Positions 6,508 through 31,412 of a DNA stretch of 32,000 bases are shown one piece after another. Source of the DNA: Ruminococcus albus AD2013 (GTDB lineage Bacteria > Bacillota > Clostridia > Oscillospirales > Ruminococcaceae); contig NZ_JAGS01000001.1 in NCBI RefSeq assembly GCF_000526775.1, forward strand, positions 1,089,685 through 1,121,684, written 5' to 3'. Below the pieces are notes generated by a model, which saw nothing but the letters and a program-made list of their open reading frames with translations, was not told where the DNA came from and searched no databases. Both the position numbers and the translations under genes were made by a program. Numbering within the stretch: the first letter of the stretch is position 1; every line of letters starts with the position of its first letter.

Positions 6508-8166
6508 ATGGATAATTTCGCATTAGCTAAACTGCTGTTCCCCGACGTTACTGCCTCCCCTGAGGATATGGAGGCCAAGTACCCCCAAAGAGATCTGCCC
6601 GAGGGTGCTTTCGTTACAAGAATAGGCCCCTCCCCTACGGGATTTGTACATCTGGGCAACCTTTACAACGCTATAATCGCCGAGAGGATAGCTCATCAGT
6701 CTGGCGGCGTTTTCTATCTCAGGATAGAGGATACCGACAACAAGCGTGAGGTCGAGGGCGCGGTTGAAACTCTTATCAACGCTATGGAATACTTTGGCGT
6801 ACACTTTGACGAGGGTGCTACCGCCGAGGGCGACAACGGCGCATACGGTCCATACCGACAGCGTCAGCGTGCGGGCATATACCATGTTTTTGCTAAAAAG
6901 CTGGTTGAGCAGGGCAAGGCTTACCCCTGTTTCCTGACCGAGGAAGAGATACAGGCTATCCGCGATGAGCAGATGGCTAACAAGGAAGACCCCGGCATCT
7001 ACGGCAAATACGCTGAAAAGAGCAGGAGCCTGACACTTGATGATATCAAGGCAAATATCGATGCGGGCAAGCCCTGGGTGCTGAGATACAAGGGCGAGAT
7101 GAACAATGAGAGGATAGTCGTTGAAGACGCTGTCCGCGGCAAGATAGAAATGCCCCGCAATTTCGCAGATTTCGTACTGCTGAAGAGCGACGGCATACCC
7201 ACCTACCATTTCGCACACGTAGTGGACGACCACCTGATGCGCTCCACACACGTTATCCGCGGTGAGGAGTGGATAAGCTCACTGCCGATGCACGTTGAAC
7301 TTTTCAAACAGCTGGGCTGGAAACAGCCTATCTACTGCCACACAGCAACTCTGATGAAGATAGATGTTTCCGAGGAAGACCCCGAGAAGCAGATAAAGAG
7401 AAAGCTTTCCAAGAGAAAAGACCCCGAGCTGGCACTGGCTTACTATCAGCAGGAGGGTATCTCCAACGATGTTGTATGGGAGTTCCTGCTGACACTGCTG
7501 AATTCAAACTATGAGGAATGGCGTGCGGCTAACCCCGATGCTTCGTATATGGACTTCCCTTACAGTATCGAGAAGATGTCCATTTCAGGCGCACTTGTTG
7601 ATATGGACAAGCTCCGTGATATCGCAAAGGACACCATCGCACGTATGGACGCAGAGACAGTATACAATAACTGGCTGGCATGGTGCGAGGAATACAACAA
7701 GGACTTTGCAGAACTTCTGAAAAAGTACCGTGACAGAACTATCGCTGCGCTGAACGTCGGCAAGAACGGCAAAAAGCCCCGTAAGGATATTGAGACCTGG
7801 AAACAGGCTTGCGATTTCATGAGTTTCTACTATGATGAAACTTTCAAGTGCGAGGACGATATGGCTGAACAGGCTGACGAGGAGTCACGCAAGGCATTCT
7901 TCGCAAAGTACCTTGCAGGCTACGACCACAGTGATGACAGCTCCGCATGGTTCGATAAGGTAAAGGCTATCACCGAGGAACTCGGTTTTGCTGTAAAGCC
8001 CAAGGATTACAAGAAAGAGCCCGAGAAGTTCAAGGGCAGTATCGTGCATATCACAAATATGCTCCGTATCGCCCTGACAGGCAGAGCAAACGCTCCCGAT
8101 ATCCACGAAGTCAGCCATGTGCTGGGCGAGGATATCGTAAGGGCAAGACTCTCCAAGTGGGCTTGA
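6508..8166 (+). CDS. gltX: glutamate--tRNA ligase
   Basis: HIGH-type motif PSPTGFVHLGN, RIEDTD, and the KMSKS-type loop KLSKRK. 552 aa. Confidence 0.92.
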   Translation: MDNFALAKLLFPDVTASPEDMEAKYPQRDLPEGAFVTRIGPSPTGFVHLGNLYNAIIAERIAHQSGGVFYLRIEDTDNKREVEGAVETLINAMEYFGVHFDEGATAEGDNGAYGPYRQRQRAGIYHVFAKKLVEQGKAYPCFLTEEEIQAIRDEQMANKEDPGIYGKYAEKSRSLTLDDIKANIDAGKPWVLRYKGEMNNERIVVEDAVRGKIEMPRNFADFVLLKSDGIPTYHFAHVVDDHLMRSTHVIRGEEWISSLPMHVELFKQLGWKQPIYCHTATLMKIDVSEEDPEKQIKRKLSKRKDPELALAYYQQEGISNDVVWEFLLTLLNSNYEEWRAANPDASYMDFPYSIEKMSISGALVDMDKLRDIAKDTIARMDAETVYNNWLAWCEEYNKDFAELLKKYRDRTIAALNVGKNGKKPRKDIETWKQACDFMSFYYDETFKCEDDMAEQADEESRKAFFAKYLAGYDHSDDSSAWFDKVKAITEELGFAVKPKDYKKEPEKFKGSIVHITNMLRIALTGRANAPDIHEVSHVLGEDIVRARLSKWA

Positions 8167-8215
8167 ATGAATTCATAATTCATAATTCACAATTCATAAT
8201 TTTTGACAGGCATCA
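8167..8215 (+). repeat. truncated gene-proximal stub of the structured repeat family, with heptamer tract (copy D)
   Basis: The units AATTCAT/AATTCAT/AATTCAC/AATTCAT/AATT occupy 8170-8201 and begin 4 nt after the gltX stop. They are followed by TTTGACAGG. This matches the gene-proximal boundary CATAATTGTTG(A/G)CAGG of copies B and C when those are read on the minus strand. Confidence 0.7.
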
Positions 8216-17375: not shown

Positions 17376-18851
17376 TTATCCTCCCAGATGCATAACGTTC
17401 AAAAGCAGCACCCAGCTGAGTCCATAGTAAGTCACCACAGCTACAAGGTCGTTGACGGTGGTTATCAGGGGACCCGAAGCCACTGCGGGGTCAACTTTTA
17501 TCTTCTTGAAAAACAGGGGTATTATTGTACCCACCGCGCTCGATATCAGCATGGCCACCATAAGCGAAACGCCTATACAGCCCGATACCGCAAAGGAAAA
17601 TCCTGCCGTGCGGTGCTTGAACAGCATGATGTAAAGTCCCACAAGCCCGAAGGACATCATGCCCAGAAGTATTCCGTTTGAAAGACCCACGCGGGTCTCC
17701 TTTGCCACAAGGTGCATCTTCTGTCTGAATGTGAGATTTTCATCCGTAAGCACTCGTATAGTCACCGCAAGTGACTGTGTGCCGACGTTACCAGCCATAT
17801 CCAGTATCAGCGACTGGAATGCCATGATAAGTGTCAGCTGAGATATTACTTTCTCGAATACGCCCACAACGCCCGAAACCAGCATACCCAGACAAAGCAG
17901 TACCAGCAGCCAGGGCAGACGCTTTTTCATACTCTGCAAGAGAGGTTCCTGCAAGTCTTCTTCCGCTGTCAGACCCGCAAACATCACGTAGTCCTCGCCC
18001 ATCTCGTCATCGACAACTTCGATAAGGCTTTTCGCCGTGATAACGCCTAGAAGTCTGCTGCTGTTATCCAGCACGGGTATCAGGTCTTCGGAATAGTCCT
18101 TCAGCTTTTCGATACACTCATCTATCTCCTCATTCGCATAAACATAGGGGAATGAGGTCATTATAAGGCTTTCGAGTGTCCTTGTGCTTCGTGCCGTGAT
18201 AAGCTCTTTCAGGTCGATAGCGCCGTAGAATTCCTCGTTATCGTCCACCACGAAAATGGTGGTGATATTGTCATTGTCCTCCGCCTGACGCACCAGTTCG
18301 CTCATCGCCTGCTTGATGGTGAGGTCTTCCTTGATGATGATGCAGTTCGTGGTCATCTTACTGCCTATCTCGTCCTCGTCGAAACTTGCTATCAGCCGAA
18401 TCTCTTTCCTGACCTCAGCGGAAAGTGCATCGATTATCAGTCCTCGCTTTTCACGCTCTATCTCACGAAGAACGTTCACTGCGGTATCCGTCTCCAGCAG
18501 ACTTACCACCGCAGCCGCCTTGTTGAGATCCATCTCGTTGAGGTATACACCCGCCTCGTCCTCATCGAGGTACTCAAAAGCTTCCGCCAGCATATCACCG
18601 CTGCACACGCGGTAAAGCTTCTGTCTTTCCTGTTTTGTAAGGTCAGCCACCACGCCCGCGATATCGTTGCCGTGGTAGTCTTCAAGTTTTTTCAGTATCA
18701 CACGCGGCGAATCGTTGCTGCGTATAACTTCGATTATCTCGCCCTCATAATCGGGCTTTACCGCCATTTCAGCGGTATCGTCAACTGTATTTATATCTGA
18801 GTTATCCTCTGTGTTCTGGGTATCCTTCCTGATATCCTCTGCCATATCCAT
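17376..18851 (-). CDS. mgtE: magnesium transporter MgtE
   Basis: MgtE N-domain, tandem CBS domains and the C-terminal TM domain with the motif DMAGNVGTQS. Confidence 0.93.
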   Translation of the reverse strand: MDMAEDIRKDTQNTEDNSDINTVDDTAEMAVKPDYEGEIIEVIRSNDSPRVILKKLEDYHGNDIAGVVADLTKQERQKLYRVCSGDMLAEAFEYLDEDEAGVYLNEMDLNKAAAVVSLLETDTAVNVLREIEREKRGLIIDALSAEVRKEIRLIASFDEDEIGSKMTTNCIIIKEDLTIKQAMSELVRQAEDNDNITTIFVVDDNEEFYGAIDLKELITARSTRTLESLIMTSFPYVYANEEIDECIEKLKDYSEDLIPVLDNSSRLLGVITAKSLIEVVDDEMGEDYVMFAGLTAEEDLQEPLLQSMKKRLPWLLVLLCLGMLVSGVVGVFEKVISQLTLIMAFQSLILDMAGNVGTQSLAVTIRVLTDENLTFRQKMHLVAKETRVGLSNGILLGMMSFGLVGLYIMLFKHRTAGFSFAVSGCIGVSLMVAMLISSAVGTIIPLFFKKIKVDPAVASGPLITTVNDLVAVVTYYGLSWVLLLNVMHLGG

Positions 18852-19136
18852 AGCCCTCCGTTCATTTAAAATAATGACGCAAGGGGTTAAAAATGGGCAT
18901 AAAAAGTCCTCTGCTGACCGTGGTATTACTGTAAAGCAACACCCTGAACGGGTCTGTCAGAGGCAACGCACATATATCCTTTGGTCTGTCTGAAAAGCAG
19001 ACAACATCACAGAAGACGACGAACCGTTACAGTTTGCCGTCCGCAGGATATTTCGCCGCATAACTGCCCTTTTGACCCGCAACTGTCACCGTTAGTCACT
19101 TCTGTCCTCACCATCCTTTACGATTGGAATTTTTTA
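18852..19136 (-). promoter_or_regulatory. long structured 5' leader of mgtE (riboswitch/attenuator candidate)
   Basis: About 285 nt separate the consensus promoter from the start codon. The leader contains GGUGAGG, several hairpins, and a long-range helix CCUCUGAC...GUCAGCAGAGG followed by ACUUUUUAU (about 18895-18965). Confidence 0.4.
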
Positions 19137-19143
19137 CTTTAAT

Positions 19144-19172
19144 ATTATACCACACTGATACAAATATGTCAA
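19144..19172 (-). promoter_or_regulatory. consensus sigma-A promoter of the mgtE operon
   Basis: The minus strand reads TTGACA (19167-19172)-17 nt-TATAAT (19144-19149). Confidence 0.7.
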
Positions 19173-19240
19173 TGGCTGACAAAGTGTGAATATGCAATTT
19201 TTTTCGTATCTGACGCGGGTTATTTGAGTTATTGCTGACG

Positions 19241-19776
19241 AGTGTCGCCCCTTCTATGTCAGTTCGAGCATGATCCGATTGCGACGTCGCAACCACTAAA
19301 CGAGTTAGTCCCTCGGGCGAGAAATCGGATAACAGCGGCAGTATCGTCCGTGGTTTCGATGTTTGTAGGTGGGTGCGGAATTTGTTTACGGACAAGAAGT
19401 GTCGCCCCTCGTTCCTCGGGTCGAGCCATCAAAGGCGCTACGCTGTTTGACGGCGGGCGAGGCAATAATTTTACGCGTATAGAAAGAGCGTGGACGTTTG
19501 TTTGTCCACGCTCTGAATACTCTTATTGCCTCGCCTTATTTGGTTGGAAGTTTGCTTTGCTATTTATTGCTTTGTTGCCACGTTGGTTTTGCGCCTTGAC
19601 CGAGAGGCTCTGCCTCTCGAGCTCTCCGCAAGCCTTTCGCGAAAGGCTTGACCCAAAGCTCATCTCCTTGGCTGGTTTCTCACAAAGTGCTGACCCGCCG
19701 TTTTGCAATTGTACCGCTCTCACAAAACCATAAATAGGCGGAATCGGCCCGCCCGGCCGAGGGCAATTATGAATTA
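19241..19776 (-). repeat. structured intergenic repeat element, copy A (extended)
   Basis: Positions 19398-19776 align module by module with 21631-21972 and 31057-31374. Hairpins: H1 19426-19453, H2 19457-19534 with inner hairpin 19485-19514, H3 19601-19619, H4 19629-19650. Positions 19241-19397 are an extra module that starts with the same AGTGTCGCCCC head. The 3' AATTATGAATTA overlaps the stop of the FAD gene. Confidence 0.85.
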
Positions 19777-21410
19777 ACAACGTGTTTTGCCGCAATGATA
19801 CCAAAGGTATAGCACTTGCCCAGTGAAAGTCCTGTCTGATGGAAAGGATAATCAGCTCCGCCATAGAACTGTCCGCCCAGATTTCCCACACAGTAAAGTC
19901 CTGCTATCGGCTTGCCCTCAGCGTCCAGTGCTCTCGCATATTCGTCTGTTACAACCCCCGAAACTTCCGCAGAAACACGGATATGCTTTCTCGCACCCCA
20001 GAAAGGCGCTTTCTCTATCTTGTGCATATACTTCGCAGGCTTGCCGAAGTCCGTATCCACGCCCTTTTCGCAAAGCTCGTTATAGCGGTCAACGGAAGCT
20101 TTCAGCTTATCGAAAGGAATATCCAGTTCCTTTGCAAGTTCTTCCAGAGTATCGCATCTGTGAAGGTCGATGAGGTTTCTGAATACGCCCTGAGGATTTT
20201 CTACCGCACCGGGTATGAACTTTTCCATCACAGCAGGCGGAACTTTTCCGCTTACGAACTCATCGTCAGGCCATTCCATATAGGTGCTGTCGTATATGGT
20301 GCAGTACCAGCCCTTTGAGCCTTTCTCTCTGTGTTCGGCGTCAAGCATCGAACCTTTATATGCGGGCTGTGAACGCAGGATATTTCCCATATATACAAAT
20401 CCCGTGTACTCGTTTGTAAATCTTTCTCCCTCCATGTTCAGGTAGAGGAATGGCTCTTCAAACATCAGTGCGGAGTCGAAATCGTGCATCATTTTTGTGT
20501 GACCGAGAGGTTCCATCTGCGCCCCTGCTGACATAGCAAGGATATGACCGTCGCCTGTTTTGCCGAACTGTTTTTTATCGAACTCGGCGATATCGGGGCA
20601 CCATCTTTTCACCATGGCGGGATTATTGGTATAATCACCGGTTGCGAGGATAACGCCCTTTTTCGCGTTGAAGCGCACATACTTGCCCTCTGCGTTCTTT
20701 GCGATAACAGCGCACACCCTGTCATTTTCACGGACTACCTGCACTGCGGGCGTATGGTAGAATACATCAAGAGCCACGCCTGTTTTCTGAACGTTATCGA
20801 TTATATTCCTAAGTGCATGACCCACGTTCTTTGGCTTGGGTCCGACCCAGGGTGCCCAGAAATAGCAGTGGTCATCGCCGTATTCATAGGAATTTTCCCT
20901 GTCCTGCCAGTGACCTGTGAAATCACCGCTGGTACTGATGAAAGCAAAAAGTCCGTTGCCGTCGTTGAGAAGTTCGGCAGAACGCTTATTATCGTCCACT
21001 TTGCTTCCGTCACCGTACTCTGTTTCCTTTGTCAGACCTGCCCTGTTCAGGAACCACATCATAGCTTCCTCGGAATGTTCAGCATAAGCGCGGAGAAGTT
21101 TTGTATCGGCACGCCAACTGCAAAGGCTGTTTGTATGGTGTATCCACTTTGCGATACCTGCCTCGGTGGAGCGCGACTTGATTATAGCCGAGCCGCAGTT
21201 GCCCTGAGATACAGCTCCTGATTCTTTTTGCAGAAGTGCAACCTTAGCGCCAAGCTCTGCTGCTTTACAAGCTGCGGGAACTCCTGCCGCGCCTGCGCCT
21301 ACGACTACCACATCGTAATCTTTCACTTCATCGGGAGTGATGCTCTGCAATTCGCACACCGAGCCTTTAACTTCTTCATCGGTGATGTTATCCAAAAATA
21401 TCTGTGCCAT
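19767..21410 (-). CDS. FAD-dependent oxidoreductase (fumarate reductase/succinate dehydrogenase flavoprotein-like family)
   Basis: N-terminal dinucleotide fold VVVVGAGAAGVPAACKAAELGAKVALLQKE and C-terminal GLYCVGN. 547 aa. Confidence 0.87.
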   Translation of the reverse strand: MAQIFLDNITDEEVKGSVCELQSITPDEVKDYDVVVVGAGAAGVPAACKAAELGAKVALLQKESGAVSQGNCGSAIIKSRSTEAGIAKWIHHTNSLCSWRADTKLLRAYAEHSEEAMMWFLNRAGLTKETEYGDGSKVDDNKRSAELLNDGNGLFAFISTSGDFTGHWQDRENSYEYGDDHCYFWAPWVGPKPKNVGHALRNIIDNVQKTGVALDVFYHTPAVQVVRENDRVCAVIAKNAEGKYVRFNAKKGVILATGDYTNNPAMVKRWCPDIAEFDKKQFGKTGDGHILAMSAGAQMEPLGHTKMMHDFDSALMFEEPFLYLNMEGERFTNEYTGFVYMGNILRSQPAYKGSMLDAEHREKGSKGWYCTIYDSTYMEWPDDEFVSGKVPPAVMEKFIPGAVENPQGVFRNLIDLHRCDTLEELAKELDIPFDKLKASVDRYNELCEKGVDTDFGKPAKYMHKIEKAPFWGARKHIRVSAEVSGVVTDEYARALDAEGKPIAGLYCVGNLGGQFYGGADYPFHQTGLSLGKCYTFGIIAAKHVVNS

Positions 21411-21428
21411 TGTTCTTCCTCCTTTTTA

Positions 21429-21464
21429 TGAACAAACTGCCGTCCACTCATGCAGGGACGGCAG
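21429..21464 (-). terminator. terminator-like hairpin immediately upstream of the FAD gene RBS
   Basis: The minus strand has a 9-bp GC-rich stem (CUGCCGUCC/GGACGGCAG) followed by UUUGUUCAU. The RBS GGAGGAA (21416-22) and the start codon (21408-10) follow directly. Confidence 0.6.
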
Positions 21465-21559
21465 CTTTTATGGTTCCGGTTCGTTAGTCCCTTTTGCGGA
21501 CTGTATTTCATTTGCTATGGTCTGTGTGTTTGGTACTGTCTGTCGGTCATGCCGCTTTA

Positions 21560-21600
21560 CGGGTTTATACGGTGGTATGCTTTGGTATCGTTTGGTATCC
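21560..21600 (-). repeat. 10-nt phased ATACC array (copy adjoining repeat B)
   Basis: GGTAT occurs on the plus strand at 21574, 21584 and 21594, with TTTAT at 21564. The minus-strand sequence GATACCAAACGATACCAAAGCATACCACCGTATAAACC aligns with 905-942 at about 76% identity. Confidence 0.75.
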
Positions 21601-21630
21601 GTTGGCAGACTTTTGTACTGCGGTTGACCT

Positions 21631-21972
21631 GTCGCCCCTTGCGGGTCGAGCCGTCAAAGACGCTTCGCTGTTTGACGGTATGCGCGGCAATAATTTTTAC
21701 GCGGAAATTTTGTGCGTGTCGTATGGTTTGGTACACGCTCGTACAATTTCGTTATTGCCGCGCTTTTTTTTGACAGGGGGCGTGAGTTTGCTGTGCTTTT
21801 ATAGTTCGCTTTGTATTTTGGTTTTGCGCCTTGAGTTGAGGGCTCTGCCCTCAAACTCCCGCAAGCCTTTCGCGAAAGGCTTGAGCCAAAGCTCTTTTCC
21901 TTGGCATACTTACCCCCACTACGCGAGTTCCCTGCCAACAATTATGAATTATGAATTATGAATTATGAATTA
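21631..21972 (-). repeat. structured intergenic repeat element, copy B
   Basis: Hairpins: H0 about 21631-21650, H1 21651-21678, H2 21682-21763, H3 21836-21854, H4 21862-21883. There are 4.7 units of AATTATG at 21940-21972, and the tract ends in the stop codon of the MacB-like permease. Confidence 0.88.
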
Positions 21973-23289
21973 CTCATACCTTAGTGCATCGATAGGATTC
22001 ATGTTGCCCGCTCTCTTTGCAGGATAGTAACCAAATATAAGTCCCGTCAGCATAGAGAATACCAGAGATATGATTATCGCAGGTATAGATGGCTGTACAC
22101 TCAGGTTGATGTACTCCGCATACTCTGCCGCAAATGAGTTCAGCAGGAATGCAGCAACCTTGCTCAGCAGTATGCCGTTCAGTACACCTATCAGTACGCC
22201 TATCGCACCGCCCGTCAGGCATATGATAACTGCTTCGATCACGAACTGACTCCTGATATCGCCATTCAAAGCACCCAGTGCTTTTCTGACACCTATCTCA
22301 CGTGTACGTTCAAGTATGCTGACAAGCATTATGTTCATAACGCCCACGCCGCCGACTATCAGGGATATCGCCGCTATAACGGAAATGGCAATGGTGATAA
22401 CGTTCAGCACTGTGGTTATCATGCCCATCTCTTCCTGCTGATCGTATATCTCTAAATACCATATCTCGTTGTTGCGGTAGATAGGCTCAAAGTAATCTTT
22501 GATATACTCCTTTGCAGTCTCCGAATCACAGTCACCTGTCCAGCCTATCTGTGCCGAACTCAGCTTTGTTTCTCTCGGTGAGACCCCCTTTGCGCTCAGC
22601 ATCGTGTTATAGGGGAAGTAAACATAAGTCTTGACATCCAGTTTTGATTTTGCAGTATTAATCTTCAGCGAATTTTTTTCAAGCTCGGTATACTCCATTA
22701 CTCCGACGATGGTAAGATTGATGTTAGCTTCTTTCATCATCTCGAAGCGGATCGTCTTGCCCAGCACGTTTTCTGTGGTACCAAAGTACTGCTCGCAGAA
22801 ATAGTCCGATACGATACAGGTATGTTTCATACCCTCGTTATCGGCATTGCTTGGTGCTCTGCCCTGAACTATCTGTTTCTTGAACTGGGGGGGATCAAAG
22901 TAGTCGCCTGATACGCCTATCATTATCGCTTTGAAGCTTTCGCCTTTCAGGTTGACTATGTCCGCACCGCCGTAAAGTTCGTTACAGCTGTATGTAAGTT
23001 CTCCGGGGTGCTGTGATATCAGATCCTGCACCATTTCAAGGGTGAGGGTATCGTCATCTTCCATAACCCTGCCGTTGTAATCCTCCCTTATCTCGGGATA
23101 GATCGTCAGCTTTACTTCACCTATCTGGTCGAAGGTCGAACTCAGTGTCTTTGAGATGGAGTTGCCTATGGTGGTGATGGTTATAACCGCGCTGATACCG
23201 ATTATGATACCAAGCATCGTCAGGAATGAACGCAGTTTGTTTATCGCCAGTGAAGCAAACGCCATTTTTATGCTTTCAAGGAAGTTCAC
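21970..23289 (-). CDS. ABC transporter permease, MacB/FtsX family
   Basis: 439 aa with an N-terminal TM helix, a MacB-like extracytoplasmic domain and a C-terminal FtsX 3-TM domain. Its ATGA start overlaps the stop of the upstream ATPase gene. Confidence 0.88.
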   Translation of the reverse strand: MNFLESIKMAFASLAINKLRSFLTMLGIIIGISAVITITTIGNSISKTLSSTFDQIGEVKLTIYPEIREDYNGRVMEDDDTLTLEMVQDLISQHPGELTYSCNELYGGADIVNLKGESFKAIMIGVSGDYFDPPQFKKQIVQGRAPSNADNEGMKHTCIVSDYFCEQYFGTTENVLGKTIRFEMMKEANINLTIVGVMEYTELEKNSLKINTAKSKLDVKTYVYFPYNTMLSAKGVSPRETKLSSAQIGWTGDCDSETAKEYIKDYFEPIYRNNEIWYLEIYDQQEEMGMITTVLNVITIAISVIAAISLIVGGVGVMNIMLVSILERTREIGVRKALGALNGDIRSQFVIEAVIICLTGGAIGVLIGVLNGILLSKVAAFLLNSFAAEYAEYINLSVQPSIPAIIISLVFSMLTGLIFGYYPAKRAGNMNPIDALRYE

Positions 23290-25656: not shown

Positions 25657-26442
25657 ATGAGCAGTATTAACAACAAAAGCAAAAGCTTCATGCTTTACAA
25701 GGAATGGGAAGAGATATTCCTCGCACTGGAAAGCGATGCCGAGAGAGGCGAGCTTATCCGTGAGATATTCGCCTTTACAAGAACAGGTGAAGAGCCCGAT
25801 CTGAAAGGCGCAATGAAGATCGCTTTCATGGTAATGTCAAATCAGCTTCGCCGTGATGCCGAGCGTTATAAAAAGGTATGCGACAGAAATCAGAAGAACA
25901 TCGCAAAACGCTGGGACAGCGAAGATGATACCAAAAAATACGAAAGTATACCAGAGGATACCAAAAATACCGATAAAGAAAAAGATGAAGAGAAAGATAA
26001 AGATACAGATAAAGAAAAGGGTGAAGACATACAGCATTCTGCAATGCAGAAGCAGTATCTTCCCGACCTCTCCCCCGCCCCCGAAAAACAGAAGTACGGA
26101 GAATTTGAAAATGTATCTTTATCCCGTGAAGAATACGAACGTCTTGCAGACAGGTTCGGCAGAGATATGACCGACAGATGTATCGAAAGCATGGACGCTT
26201 ACATCGAACAATCGGGCAAAGAATACCGAAGCTGTTATGCAAAGCTGAAAAACTGGATATCGGAAGAATCCGTAAAAACGGGAAATACTCCATCTTCAAA
26301 AGCTTCATCGGCTGAAAACGGCAAATTGACCGAGCAGGAACTCGCTGATTATGAATCCTATGCGAGAGCCCATTCAATGGAAGATTTTGCAAGGGAACTC
26401 AAAGAAAGATCAACAATTCTTTTCGGTGCCGAACAGCAGTGA
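25657..26442 (+). CDS. DUF6291 / phage replisome-organizer-like protein (orphan)
   Basis: The N-terminus FMLYKEWEEIFLALESDAERGELIREIFAF and the central YGEFENVSLSREEYERLADRFG...YAKLKNWI resemble Firmicute phage/plasmid replication-organizer proteins (from my recollection of the family). There is a strong RBS, TAAGGAGG. Confidence 0.7.
   Translation: MSSINNKSKSFMLYKEWEEIFLALESDAERGELIREIFAFTRTGEEPDLKGAMKIAFMVMSNQLRRDAERYKKVCDRNQKNIAKRWDSEDDTKKYESIPEDTKNTDKEKDEEKDKDTDKEKGEDIQHSAMQKQYLPDLSPAPEKQKYGEFENVSLSREEYERLADRFGRDMTDRCIESMDAYIEQSGKEYRSCYAKLKNWISEESVKTGNTPSSKASSAENGKLTEQELADYESYARAHSMEDFARELKERSTILFGAEQQ
25924..25975 (+). repeat. 10-nt phased ATAC(C/G)+A-tract array inside the DUF6291 gene
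   Basis: ATACC/G pentamers start at 25928, 25938, 25948, 25958 and 25967. There is a 27 of 28 nt match to 902-929. Confidence 0.8.
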
Positions 26443-30953: not shown

Positions 30954-31056
30954 GTGGGTTCGGGGAGATTTGGTTATTTTGACTAAAGTTGTTTCGGCGG
31001 TATGTGGCGTACGGAGTGGGGCAGGTCGATGGTTTTGTTTTGTGGCATCGGTTTGC

Positions 31057-31374
31057 GAGTCATCGGATTCGCTTCGCTGTCCGATGACAGGCGCGGCAAT
31101 ATTTACGGATAAAGTTTGAGCGTGGACGTTTGTTTGTCCACGCTCTGTATGCCTATATTGCCGCGCCCTATTTAGGCGGAAGATTGTTTCGCTTTTAAAG
31201 CTTACTGTGTATTTTAGTTTTGCGCCTTGATACGAGGGCTCTGCCCCTCAACAGTCAGCTTTGCTGACTGTTGCTCCATGCAAACTTTTCGCGAAAAGCT
31301 TGACCAAAAGCTCTTCTCCTTGGCTTTCTATCCTAAGTACAGCTATGTTATCTTCCTGTCAACAATTATGAATC
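31057..31374 (-). repeat. structured intergenic repeat element, copy C
   Basis: Hairpins: H1 31059-31088, H2 31091-31166 with inner hairpin 31118-31145 (identical to copy A), H3 31234-31249, an extra perfect 11-bp hairpin at 31249-31273, and H4 31281-31302. It ends in AATTATGAATC at 31364-31374. Confidence 0.85.
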
Positions 31375-31412
31375 AAAAAAGTCCCGAAACGCTTATATTT
31401 CGGGACTTTTTC
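31375..31412. terminator. bidirectional intrinsic terminator downstream of the FN3-repeat gene
   Basis: A 10-bp stem (agtcccgaaa/tttcgggact) is flanked by A6 and T5 runs, about 15 nt after the stop at 31427. Confidence 0.8.

Follow-up and report, generated by a model that had tools for sequence, protein, structure and literature searches.

The stretch of DNA examined here (the window) comprises 32,000 nucleotides (nt) of Ruminococcus albus AD2013 (contig NZ_JAGS01000001.1, positions 1,089,685 to 1,121,684 of the forward strand) and carries three copies, A, B and C, of a large intergenic element built from an ordered series of hairpins. With a probability of about 0.55, these copies are members of a lineage-specific mosaic hairpin repeat of the R. 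albus group, a stem-loop array of the BIME/BOX/REPIN kind placed at gene 3' ends or between cistrons. The repeat unit is an arm of ~275 nt consisting of a leader, the hairpins H0, H1 and H2, a T-rich linker, the conserved motif TTTTGCGCCTTGA, the hairpins H3 and H4, a tail hairpin and an optional (AATTATG)n module. Its copies lie in regions with gene 3' ends, and the tail is often found 8-30 nt from a stop codon. The family is undescribed and of the same general kind as REP/BIME and BOX, being neither a gene nor a known RNA; literature searches returned no description of such a repeat in R. albus, a major rumen fibre degrader.

Three copies of a dispersed family

A preliminary description, made from the letters of the window alone, had proposed that hairpin modules recur in a shared order at 19398-19776 (A), 21631-21972 (B) and 31057-31374 (C), and all of them were found there. 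H0, a head hairpin (TCGCCC..GGGTCGA) that is absent from C, is followed by H1 with its loop CGCT(A/T)CGCTG and by the compound H2, whose outer stem GCG.GGCAATA/TATTGCC.CGC encloses an inner GC-rich hairpin (GAGCGTGGAC-GTTTGTT-TGTCCACGCTC, exactly the same in A and C). Past the T-rich linker come TTTTGCGCCTTGA, H3 (..GGC-TCT-GCC..), H4 (CAAGCCTTT-CGCG-AAAGGCTTG), the weak tail hairpin CCAAAGCTC..TCCTTGG and a stretch that ends in the AATTATG tract. The four double changes listed earlier between the H1 pairs of B and C were recovered, and the additional head of copy A (19241-19397) was confirmed, with a start 76% identical to A's own head at 19398-19426 (direct repeat D10).

A profile that excludes the window and rests on 74 copies from other genomes matches A at 19397-19716 (E = 1.7e-91), B at 21607-21965 (E = 2.8e-82) and C at 31056-31387 (E = 4.8e-70); the extra head of A gives a weak match at 19308-19394 (E = 1.8e-4). 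The resemblance of A, B and C is far beyond chance. Copy B also folds 4 standard deviations better than dinucleotide shuffles on both strands.

Beyond the window, 148 copies with a core of ~275 nt were collected. A 21-base pattern spanning the TTTTGCGCCTTGA motif and the H3 loop has 52 exact matches in only 3 of 185,579 species genomes, namely R. albus AR67, R. albus KH2T6 and one metagenome-assembled genome (MAG) of a Ruminococcus sp., and profile searches of these loci yielded 84 substantial copies. A pattern taken from H4 led to 46 metagenome loci (JGI/ENA contigs) holding 64 further copies. Copy B is present in R. albus 7 and GCA_000621285 as well, and plasmid and phage collections gave no match to the family. 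The family is thus restricted to the R. albus species group, with at least ~25-35 copies in each genome. The multi-hairpin intergenic family first described from the window is real, but the three copies are not a local triplet: they belong to a mosaic repeat dispersed over the whole genome.

Pairs, leaders and optional modules

More than half of the collected copies (80 of 148) stand in head-to-head pairs. Among neighbours less than 600 nt apart, 40 are head to head and none are in tandem or tail to tail. The spacers between the two heads fall into fixed length classes (72-79, 89, 115-133 and 148 nt), so the centre of the pair is itself a conserved module. Two leader types are recognised, type I (..TAGTTTGCGAGTTTTCGCCCC) and type II (..GTACTGCGGT.....GTCGCCCC), and pairs with a 133-nt spacer combine one of each; the leader of copy B (GTACTGCGG..) is common to many copies. 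The fuller form of the element is two arms head to head around a spacer of fixed class, and single arms such as those in the window look like half elements.

Within an arm the modules are ordered, and some are optional or repeated, as seen in the duplicated head of A, tandem tail modules, optional hairpins and the optional terminal module. The tails exist in 2-3 H4 variants, may carry a hairpin CGCGGCA..TGCCGCG followed by a second tail unit, and may have an additional hairpin between H3 and H4. Another optional module, the perfect palindrome CAAACAAATGTTCCACGTGGAACATTTGTTTG, occurs just upstream of heads in six loci (L018, L019, L023, L025, L047 and L048). The motifs GTATGC-N4-GCATAC and GGTATGCGGTCGCATA also recur, at a spacing of ~10-11 nt that is operator- or iteron-like. 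They are found in the window at 21560-21612, 902-991 and 25924-25962, beside heads in L046, L047, L023, L008, L038 and L049, and inside H2 loops in L006, L029 and L045.

Paired stem alleles

Covariation was measured on 51 head halves with 37 hand-placed pairs, of which 89.4% are paired. The score of 0.229 compares with 0.107 in shuffles (0 of 500 reach 0.229) and with at most 0.078 when the partners are slid. Compensatory changes, proposed earlier from the window copies, are therefore strongly present, but they take the form of discrete stem alleles that are swapped as modules and not of gradual covariation of the RNA type. For H1, five or more stem versions, all perfectly paired, surround an unchanged loop (CCG/CGG+TCAAA, CTG/CAG+TCAAA, TCA/TGA+TCGGA, AAA/TTT+TCGGA and AAA/TTT+TCAAC), and H3 and H4 each have several paired alleles. 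Since every allele still pairs, either pairing itself is constrained or it is restored by a hairpin-copying mechanism. The loops and TTTTGCGCCTTGA are more conserved than the stems, and the combination of conserved loops with an invariant single-stranded motif suggests a sequence-specific factor.

The mismatches carry no strand signal. The head half has 1624 Watson-Crick pairs, 42 G·T and 29 A·C; H3 and H4 together have 1948 Watson-Crick pairs, 3 G·T and 14 A·C, an excess of Watson-Crick over wobble plus mismatch of more than 20:1; and folds computed without G·U show 14 G·T against 19 A·C single mismatches. Because G·T and A·C are balanced (42/29, 14/19, 3/14), neither RNA strand is favoured, and covariation alone, in the absence of a G·U strand signal, is no proof of a functional RNA. 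An assignment to the + strand from whole-sequence folds (709 G·U against 305 A·C) was discarded as an artefact of the T-rich linkers, the conserved helices being balanced. In plain folding the + strand does better than the - strand, by a mean of 5.3 kcal/mol and in 60 of 71 copies, an apparent advantage that stems from its T-rich linkers; base composition is asymmetric between strands (T 6206 against A 3378).

The terminal module and gene ends

In the 0.84 Mb of loci, 39 of 47 clusters of the terminal heptad lie at most 260 nt beyond a tail and in the same orientation. On the gene-sense strand the heptads read (TAATTCA)n and place TAA in all three frames, and the opposite strand has TGA in all three. 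The terminal module of A is also found after copy B in KH2T6 and in L039. A gene for a flavin adenine dinucleotide (FAD)-binding oxidoreductase ends inside this module, with ..KHVVNS-TAA, in KH2T6 as in the window; R. albus 7 has no copy A, and its gene ends with ..KHSVTGMV-TAG, followed by a plain terminator. As the C-terminus differs where copy A is absent, the element has replaced the last codons of the FAD gene. One solitary module in the window (8167-8210), with four TAATTCA-type heptads and TTTTGACAGG, stands directly after the stop codon (8164-8166) of a class I Glu/Gln-type tRNA synthetase gene and just before the next open reading frame (ORF); it is either a relic or an independent small unit.

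In ~22 copies the stop codon is located 8-31 nt from GCCAAGG, at the border of a conserved extension (..AGCAAACTTGCGGAAACTGCCAAGG). Several heads are set off from the upstream gene by an ordinary terminator. Where a gene is called on the tail side of a single copy, the tail points toward the gene end in 46 of 62 cases, for part of which the convergent class accounts; the distances to the stop codon are more informative. Single copies with both neighbours assigned, taken from two independent sets, lie in 16 convergent, 4 divergent and 30 tandem regions; in the tandem regions the - strand of the element is the gene-sense strand 20 times and the opposite strand 10 times.

The region downstream of the xylulokinase gene differs between lineages. 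AR67 and KH2T6 carry a pair of elements 29 nt past the stop codon, R. bicirculans-type contigs have a plain terminator, another lineage has a spacer of 64 nt only, and in two Ruminococcus MAG lineages the place is taken by another palindromic element, likewise starting in stop-rich A/T heptads. From this comparison, the element takes the place of the terminator and is lineage-specific. The element of the MAG lineages (L113-L116, for example L113 3525-3700) begins with (AAGAATA)n, has central GC hairpins and carries inverse A/T repeats at its far side; it looks like an analogous repeat family.

Possible effects on transcripts

The elements would be transcribed by read-through from the neighbouring gene. 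By analogy with REP/BIME of E. coli, stem-loop arrays at the 3' end or between cistrons could keep 3' exonucleases out, define or protect the ends of transcripts, or separate cistrons. Read head to tail, H2 and the U-tract after it could plausibly act as an intrinsic terminator of convergent or antisense transcripts; a hairpin plus U-tract is present at H2 in 51 of 117 copies on the + strand (44%) and in 17 of 117 on the - strand (15%). Within a pair, a transcript from either gene would meet the far arm head to tail. The heptad module, by offering a stop in any frame, may allow the element to abut or slightly enter the end of a gene.

Logan contigs carrying the FAD gene of R. albus 7 (runs SRR4055029-45, SRR059973 and SRR1168528; L106-L112 and L054) bear on this proposal. 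Six of them end raggedly 21-156 nt past the FAD stop codon, around the terminator, and two longer ones (SRR1168528, SRR4055031) continue into the downstream genes, for 1.9 kb and more than 4 kb. At the 5' side, every contig starts 333-429 nt upstream, within element B, and five share one starting base in H3. The ragged ends in unique sequence suggest that these contigs are transcript assemblies. RNA-seq of R. albus 7 exists (PMC4300822; PRJNA238076). If the contigs are RNA, transcription of FAD includes the gene-sense strand of element B between H3 and the head; the interval from B to FAD has no predicted promoter, which fits co-transcription.

Module exchange and age

Comparison of the same sites in related strains reveals how the copies change. 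Between the window and the metagenome strain L067/L083, whose flanks are 97-100% identical, the H1-H2-linker segment of copy A (~170 nt) and its terminal module are swapped for other alleles of the family while the rest is identical. At copy C, the window and L083 differ in H2, lost between AGGCG repeats, in H0, lost between GCGAG repeats, and in the presence or absence of one hairpin, the copy in L083 having H0 but neither H2 nor the extra hairpin. Copy B differs between the window and R. albus 7 mainly by a swapped H1 stem and a swapped H4 module. The family evolves by recombination between copies and by palindrome-mediated deletion between short direct repeats.

Five genomes, from at least three species-level lineages, carry element B at an identical site: the window, L067, KH2T6, R. 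albus 7 and GCA_000621285. Their flanking DNA is only 78-98% identical. Further orthologous pairs are occupied as well (L019/L048, L014/L041 and L046/L031), and in more distant Ruminococcus no element lies next to the FAD homologue. The best identity between paralogues is ~87%. Among loci of different genomes no empty site was found, the orthologous sites examined being either occupied or of different synteny. No copy bears signs of recent transposition.

Insertions at the repeats

Seven loci carry a small mobile element at one identical point of the repeat tail: L009 (1-3540), L021, L026, L043, L047, L075 and L092. The junction reads ..GCTTGAsCmAA|TGTTCACTAGCGATAAAG. The element encodes a large serine recombinase (Resolvase, Recombinase, Zn_ribbon_recom, DUF4368) and a MobA/VirD2 relaxase, and has an RSF1010-like origin of transfer (oriT) made of an inverted repeat and TATAAGTGCGCCCT (L092 1175-1215). 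Given seven insertions at one tail point, the repeat serves as a multi-copy attachment site. A different insertion interrupts the MacB/FtsX permease gene upstream of element B in R. albus 7 (CP002403; L053 1-2835), a gene that is intact in GCA_000621285; it encodes a serine recombinase and an AAA-ATPase_like/PDDEXK_9 protein.

Alternative explanations

Several observations weigh against a stem-loop array acting on transcripts at gene ends. The balance of G·T and A·C fits a constraint on DNA at least as well as one on RNA, and a simple exonuclease barrier does not account for the strongly conserved loops and linker motifs. On the gene-sense (-) strand, 85% of copies lack a canonical hairpin-plus-U terminator, and at A and C the element is not needed for termination because an ordinary terminator already stands between stop codon and tail. 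The 2:1 orientation bias in tandem regions is not significant alone, the RNA origin of the Logan contigs is deduced from raggedness only, and the spread of the family to dozens of loci is not explained.

The last point would be met by a non-autonomous mobile element that is, or recently was, active, either a miniature inverted-repeat transposable element (MITE) or a giant REPIN-like doublet moved in trans by a hairpin-recognising enzyme (HUH/Y1 transposase, Rep or relaxase). Such an element would agree with the dozens of unrelated loci per genome, the strictly inverted doublets (single arms being possible decayed remnants, as in REPINs), the purely Watson-Crick stems without strand-specific wobble, the invariant single-stranded motif beside hairpins and the replaced end of the FAD gene. 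Absence of terminal inverted repeats and transposase had been noted from the window copies and holds for the family: heads compared with reverse-complemented tails score 11.4 against 11.1 for shuffles (mean local score), no flanking direct repeats indicative of target-site duplication were seen at heads or tails, and no neighbouring protein recurs. Candidate terminal repeats picked by eye (TGCGG..GCCAAGG) were dropped when the systematic test proved negative. Lack of terminal repeats and of target duplications is itself usual for elements of the IS200/IS605 and REP types. However, no paralogues exceed ~87% identity, orthologous insertions are common to species with flanks only 78-82% identical, no empty-site polymorphism was seen, no gene recurs next to the copies, and a tblastn search of the 0.84 Mb of loci, rather than of whole genomes, with IS200 and IS608 TnpA queries found no Y1 transposase, its one match being spurious (an unrelated ORF in L058). 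Present or recent mobility is therefore considered unlikely. An integron attC origin, raised since the elements follow stop codons, was also rejected because the core sites do not fit. A more specific proposal is that the head-to-head doublets are giant REPIN-like replicative units of a Firmicute, nicked at the hairpins and TTTTGCGCCTTGA by a HUH-type enzyme (a domesticated Y1 transposase, a Rep or a relaxase related to MobA). It is a long shot; if true, such a system would multiply the elements, keep their modules alike and insert stop-plus-terminator cassettes at the ends of genes.

A constraint on DNA would equally suit the symmetric, nearly perfect Watson-Crick palindromes. The hairpins or cruciforms and the conserved motifs might be sites that chromosomal proteins bind or process, in the way that gyrase and IHF bind to BIMEs, or they might be pseudo-oriT or single-strand-origin-like, and at the least they are attachment sites for the serine-recombinase element. 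The large A/T asymmetry between strands, the GTATGC-N4-GCATAC operator-like motifs at heads and in some H2 loops, and the seven independent serine-recombinase/MobA insertions at one exact tail point argue in this direction, as does the resemblance of TGCGCCTT to TGCGCCCT, the core of the oriT of the serine-recombinase element. Yet the similarity between repeat and RSF1010-like oriT is no better than that of shuffles (15.7 against 15.5), and the pseudo-oriT idea was given up; no candidate binding protein was identified, and use as an attachment site can be secondary, as with insertion sequence (IS) elements that target REPs. A DNA-level role is on balance quite improbable.

The strong covariation and conserved loops might instead mark multi-copy small RNA genes read head to tail, with divergent transcription from the pair centre ending at H2 or at the tail. 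A U-rich + strand that folds better, the terminator-like H2 and U-tract on that strand, and head-to-head pairs that would suit divergent promoters are in keeping with such genes. Nevertheless, scans of leaders and centres gave no sigma-70-type promoter, although the usual R. albus type (TTTACw-N17-TATAAT) is easily recognised immediately outside tails directed at a gene start. The conserved helices have no G·U excess on either strand, the putative terminator falls in the middle of the unit, and close strains differ by gains, losses and swaps of modules, changes that a defined RNA could not withstand. Consistent with the preliminary description, which recognised no known Rfam family, an Rfam 15 search of the window at the gathering threshold gave no match; at E<=10, region 18800-22100 gave none on the elements, the sole match being Ms_IGR-4 (E 7.2) at 21269-21300 within the FAD gene. 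Small RNA genes are accordingly held to be very unlikely. Even less can be said for genes in the long + strand ORFs 19242-19733 and 21494-21961, which, at 155-163 codons, cover copies A and B. As proposed from the window, the repeat is non-coding: no more than 19 of 117 copies lack stops on the + strand, and these not in a common frame (17 of 117 on the - strand), and indels are not multiples of three. With the + strand poor in A, open frames are expected by chance, and coding can be taken as refuted.

The elements occupy many gene ends and operon junctions of R. albus, and so probably influence where transcripts end and how stable they are at these places. Short-read assemblies break at them, and they give rise to spurious ORF calls, among them those of 155-163 codons in the window. 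Strong stem covariation that arises through exchange of whole modules calls for caution in covariation-based RNA discovery. As a multi-copy safe landing site for a serine-recombinase mobile element, the repeat may also serve as a natural integration site for genetic tools in a host that is hard to engineer.

Copies in the window and their gene surroundings

The genes around the elements are all on the - strand and encode MgtE, the FAD-binding oxidoreductase, two efflux operons of the MacB/FtsX-ABC-HlyD type, a TetR regulator and a protein with an fn3 domain. Read on the - strand, each element begins at or just past the stop codon of the upstream gene, and the next gene comes after it. A check of each copy against the nearest stop codon, suggested in the preliminary description, placed the stop within or just beyond the terminal module. 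The stop of the FAD-binding gene is the TTA at 19767-19769, inside the terminal module of A, and that of the MacB/FtsX permease is the last TTA of the heptad array of B (21970-21972); at A and C an ordinary terminator lies between stop codon and tail. Strong sigma-70-type promoters for the next gene are found downstream of A (19172-19144) and of C (30953-30925). The positions of the modules are collected in Table 1.

Table 1. Modules of the hairpin repeat in the window (positions in the window)
Feature	Position	Strand	Modules and remarks
Extra degenerate head of A	19241-19397	+	H0-like start AGTGTCGCCCC; H1-like stem ATCCGATT/AATCGGAT around GCGACGTCGC; also in sister strain L067
Copy A core	19398-19676	+	H0 19402-19424; H1 19425-19455; H2 19458-19535 (inner hairpin 19487-19513); TTTTGCGCCTTGA 19587-19599; H3 19601-19619; H4 19629-19650; tail hairpin 19653-19671
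Copy A terminal module	19677-19776	+	Terminator-like hairpin on - strand (19754-19736), plus CAATTATGAATTA
Copy B type II leader	21600-21630	+	GTTGGCAGACTTTTGTACTGCGGTTGACC; preceded by GGTAT.C iteron-like repeats, 21560-21612
Copy B core	21631-21906	+	H0 21632-21649; H1 21650-21679; H2 21682-21763, then T8; TTTTGCGCCTTGA 21822-21834; H3 21834-21858; H4 21862-21883; tail hairpin 21886-21904
Copy B terminal module	21907-21972	+	Extension ending CCTGCCAAC, then (AATTATG)x4
Copy C core	31053-31328	+	No H0; H1 31059-31088; H2 31091-31166; TTTTGCGCCTTGA 31218-31230; H3 ~31233-31249; extra hairpin CAACAGTCAGC-TTT-GCTGACTGTTG 31249-31273; H4 31281-31302; tail hairpin 31304-31323
Copy C terminal module	31329-31374	+	TATCCTAAGTACAGCTATGTT..CAACAATTATGAAT; followed by ordinary bidirectional terminator, 31376-31410
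Solitary terminal module	8167-8210	-	ATGAATTCATAATTCATAATTCACAATTCATAATTTTTGACAGG in + strand reading; no core element

Two further features of the region lie apart from the repeat. A conserved GC hairpin, GCTGCCGTCC..GGACGGCAG, is located ~20 nt upstream of the ribosome binding site of the FAD gene in the window (21440-21475, - strand), in KH2T6 and in R. albus 7 (L053 3943-3975), and may function as an attenuator or be a site of processing. Amid the - strand operons stands a single + strand ORF (25657-26442) that encodes a DUF6291 domain; it has an acidic and lysine-rich region with a 12-nt periodicity and could be the remnant of a mobile element or replicon.

Comparison with known systems

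Among known repeats, the R. albus family is closest in kind to the REP, BIME and REPIN elements of E. coli and Pseudomonas and to BOX elements, although its unit size sets it apart from all of them. REP-type repeats too are many-copy extragenic palindromic units of mosaic structure that lie after or between genes, including convergent ones (here 16 convergent against 4 divergent regions), that form inverted doublets alongside single units (here 40 head-to-head pairs and 0 of any other arrangement), and that have neither terminal inverted repeats nor target duplications. REP/BIME elements stabilise upstream mRNA, bind host proteins and serve as targets for other mobile elements. The R. albus arm, in contrast, is ~275 nt long with at least six distinct hairpins, compared with 20-40 nt and one hairpin, and thus ~10 times larger. 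It is present in tens and not hundreds of copies, lacks a GTAG-type 5' tetranucleotide, carries a stop-codon heptad module and resides in a Firmicute. No RAYT gene was found in the 0.84 Mb of loci, to which, rather than to whole genomes, the scan extended.

The BOX elements of Streptococcus pneumoniae (boxA, boxB in n copies, and boxC) share the use of modules that are present, absent or repeated, the stable predicted hairpins, and an intergenic location close to gene ends in a Firmicute. The R. albus elements are larger, with doublets that are strictly head to head and stem alleles that are discrete and co-vary. MITEs such as Correia in Neisseria, RUP in pneumococcus and bcr1 in Bacillus cereus are likewise short, dispersed, non-coding hairpin repeats; they can provide terminators or promoters and are transcribed along with adjacent genes. 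They are defined, however, by terminal inverted repeats that match an IS and by target-site duplications, whereas the R. albus repeat gave a negative inverted-repeat test and showed neither duplications nor near-identical copies.

Intrinsic terminators resemble the repeat in their position just after stop codons, where orthologues elsewhere carry a plain terminator, and H2 with its U-tract is terminator-like on one strand. They differ in that the R. albus element measures ~300-700 nt with many hairpins, most copies have no hairpin plus U-tract on the gene-sense strand, and ordinary terminators often adjoin it. Set beside these systems, the R. albus repeat stands out by its size, by doublets that are strictly head to head, by the stop-codon module and by stems that co-vary in blocks.

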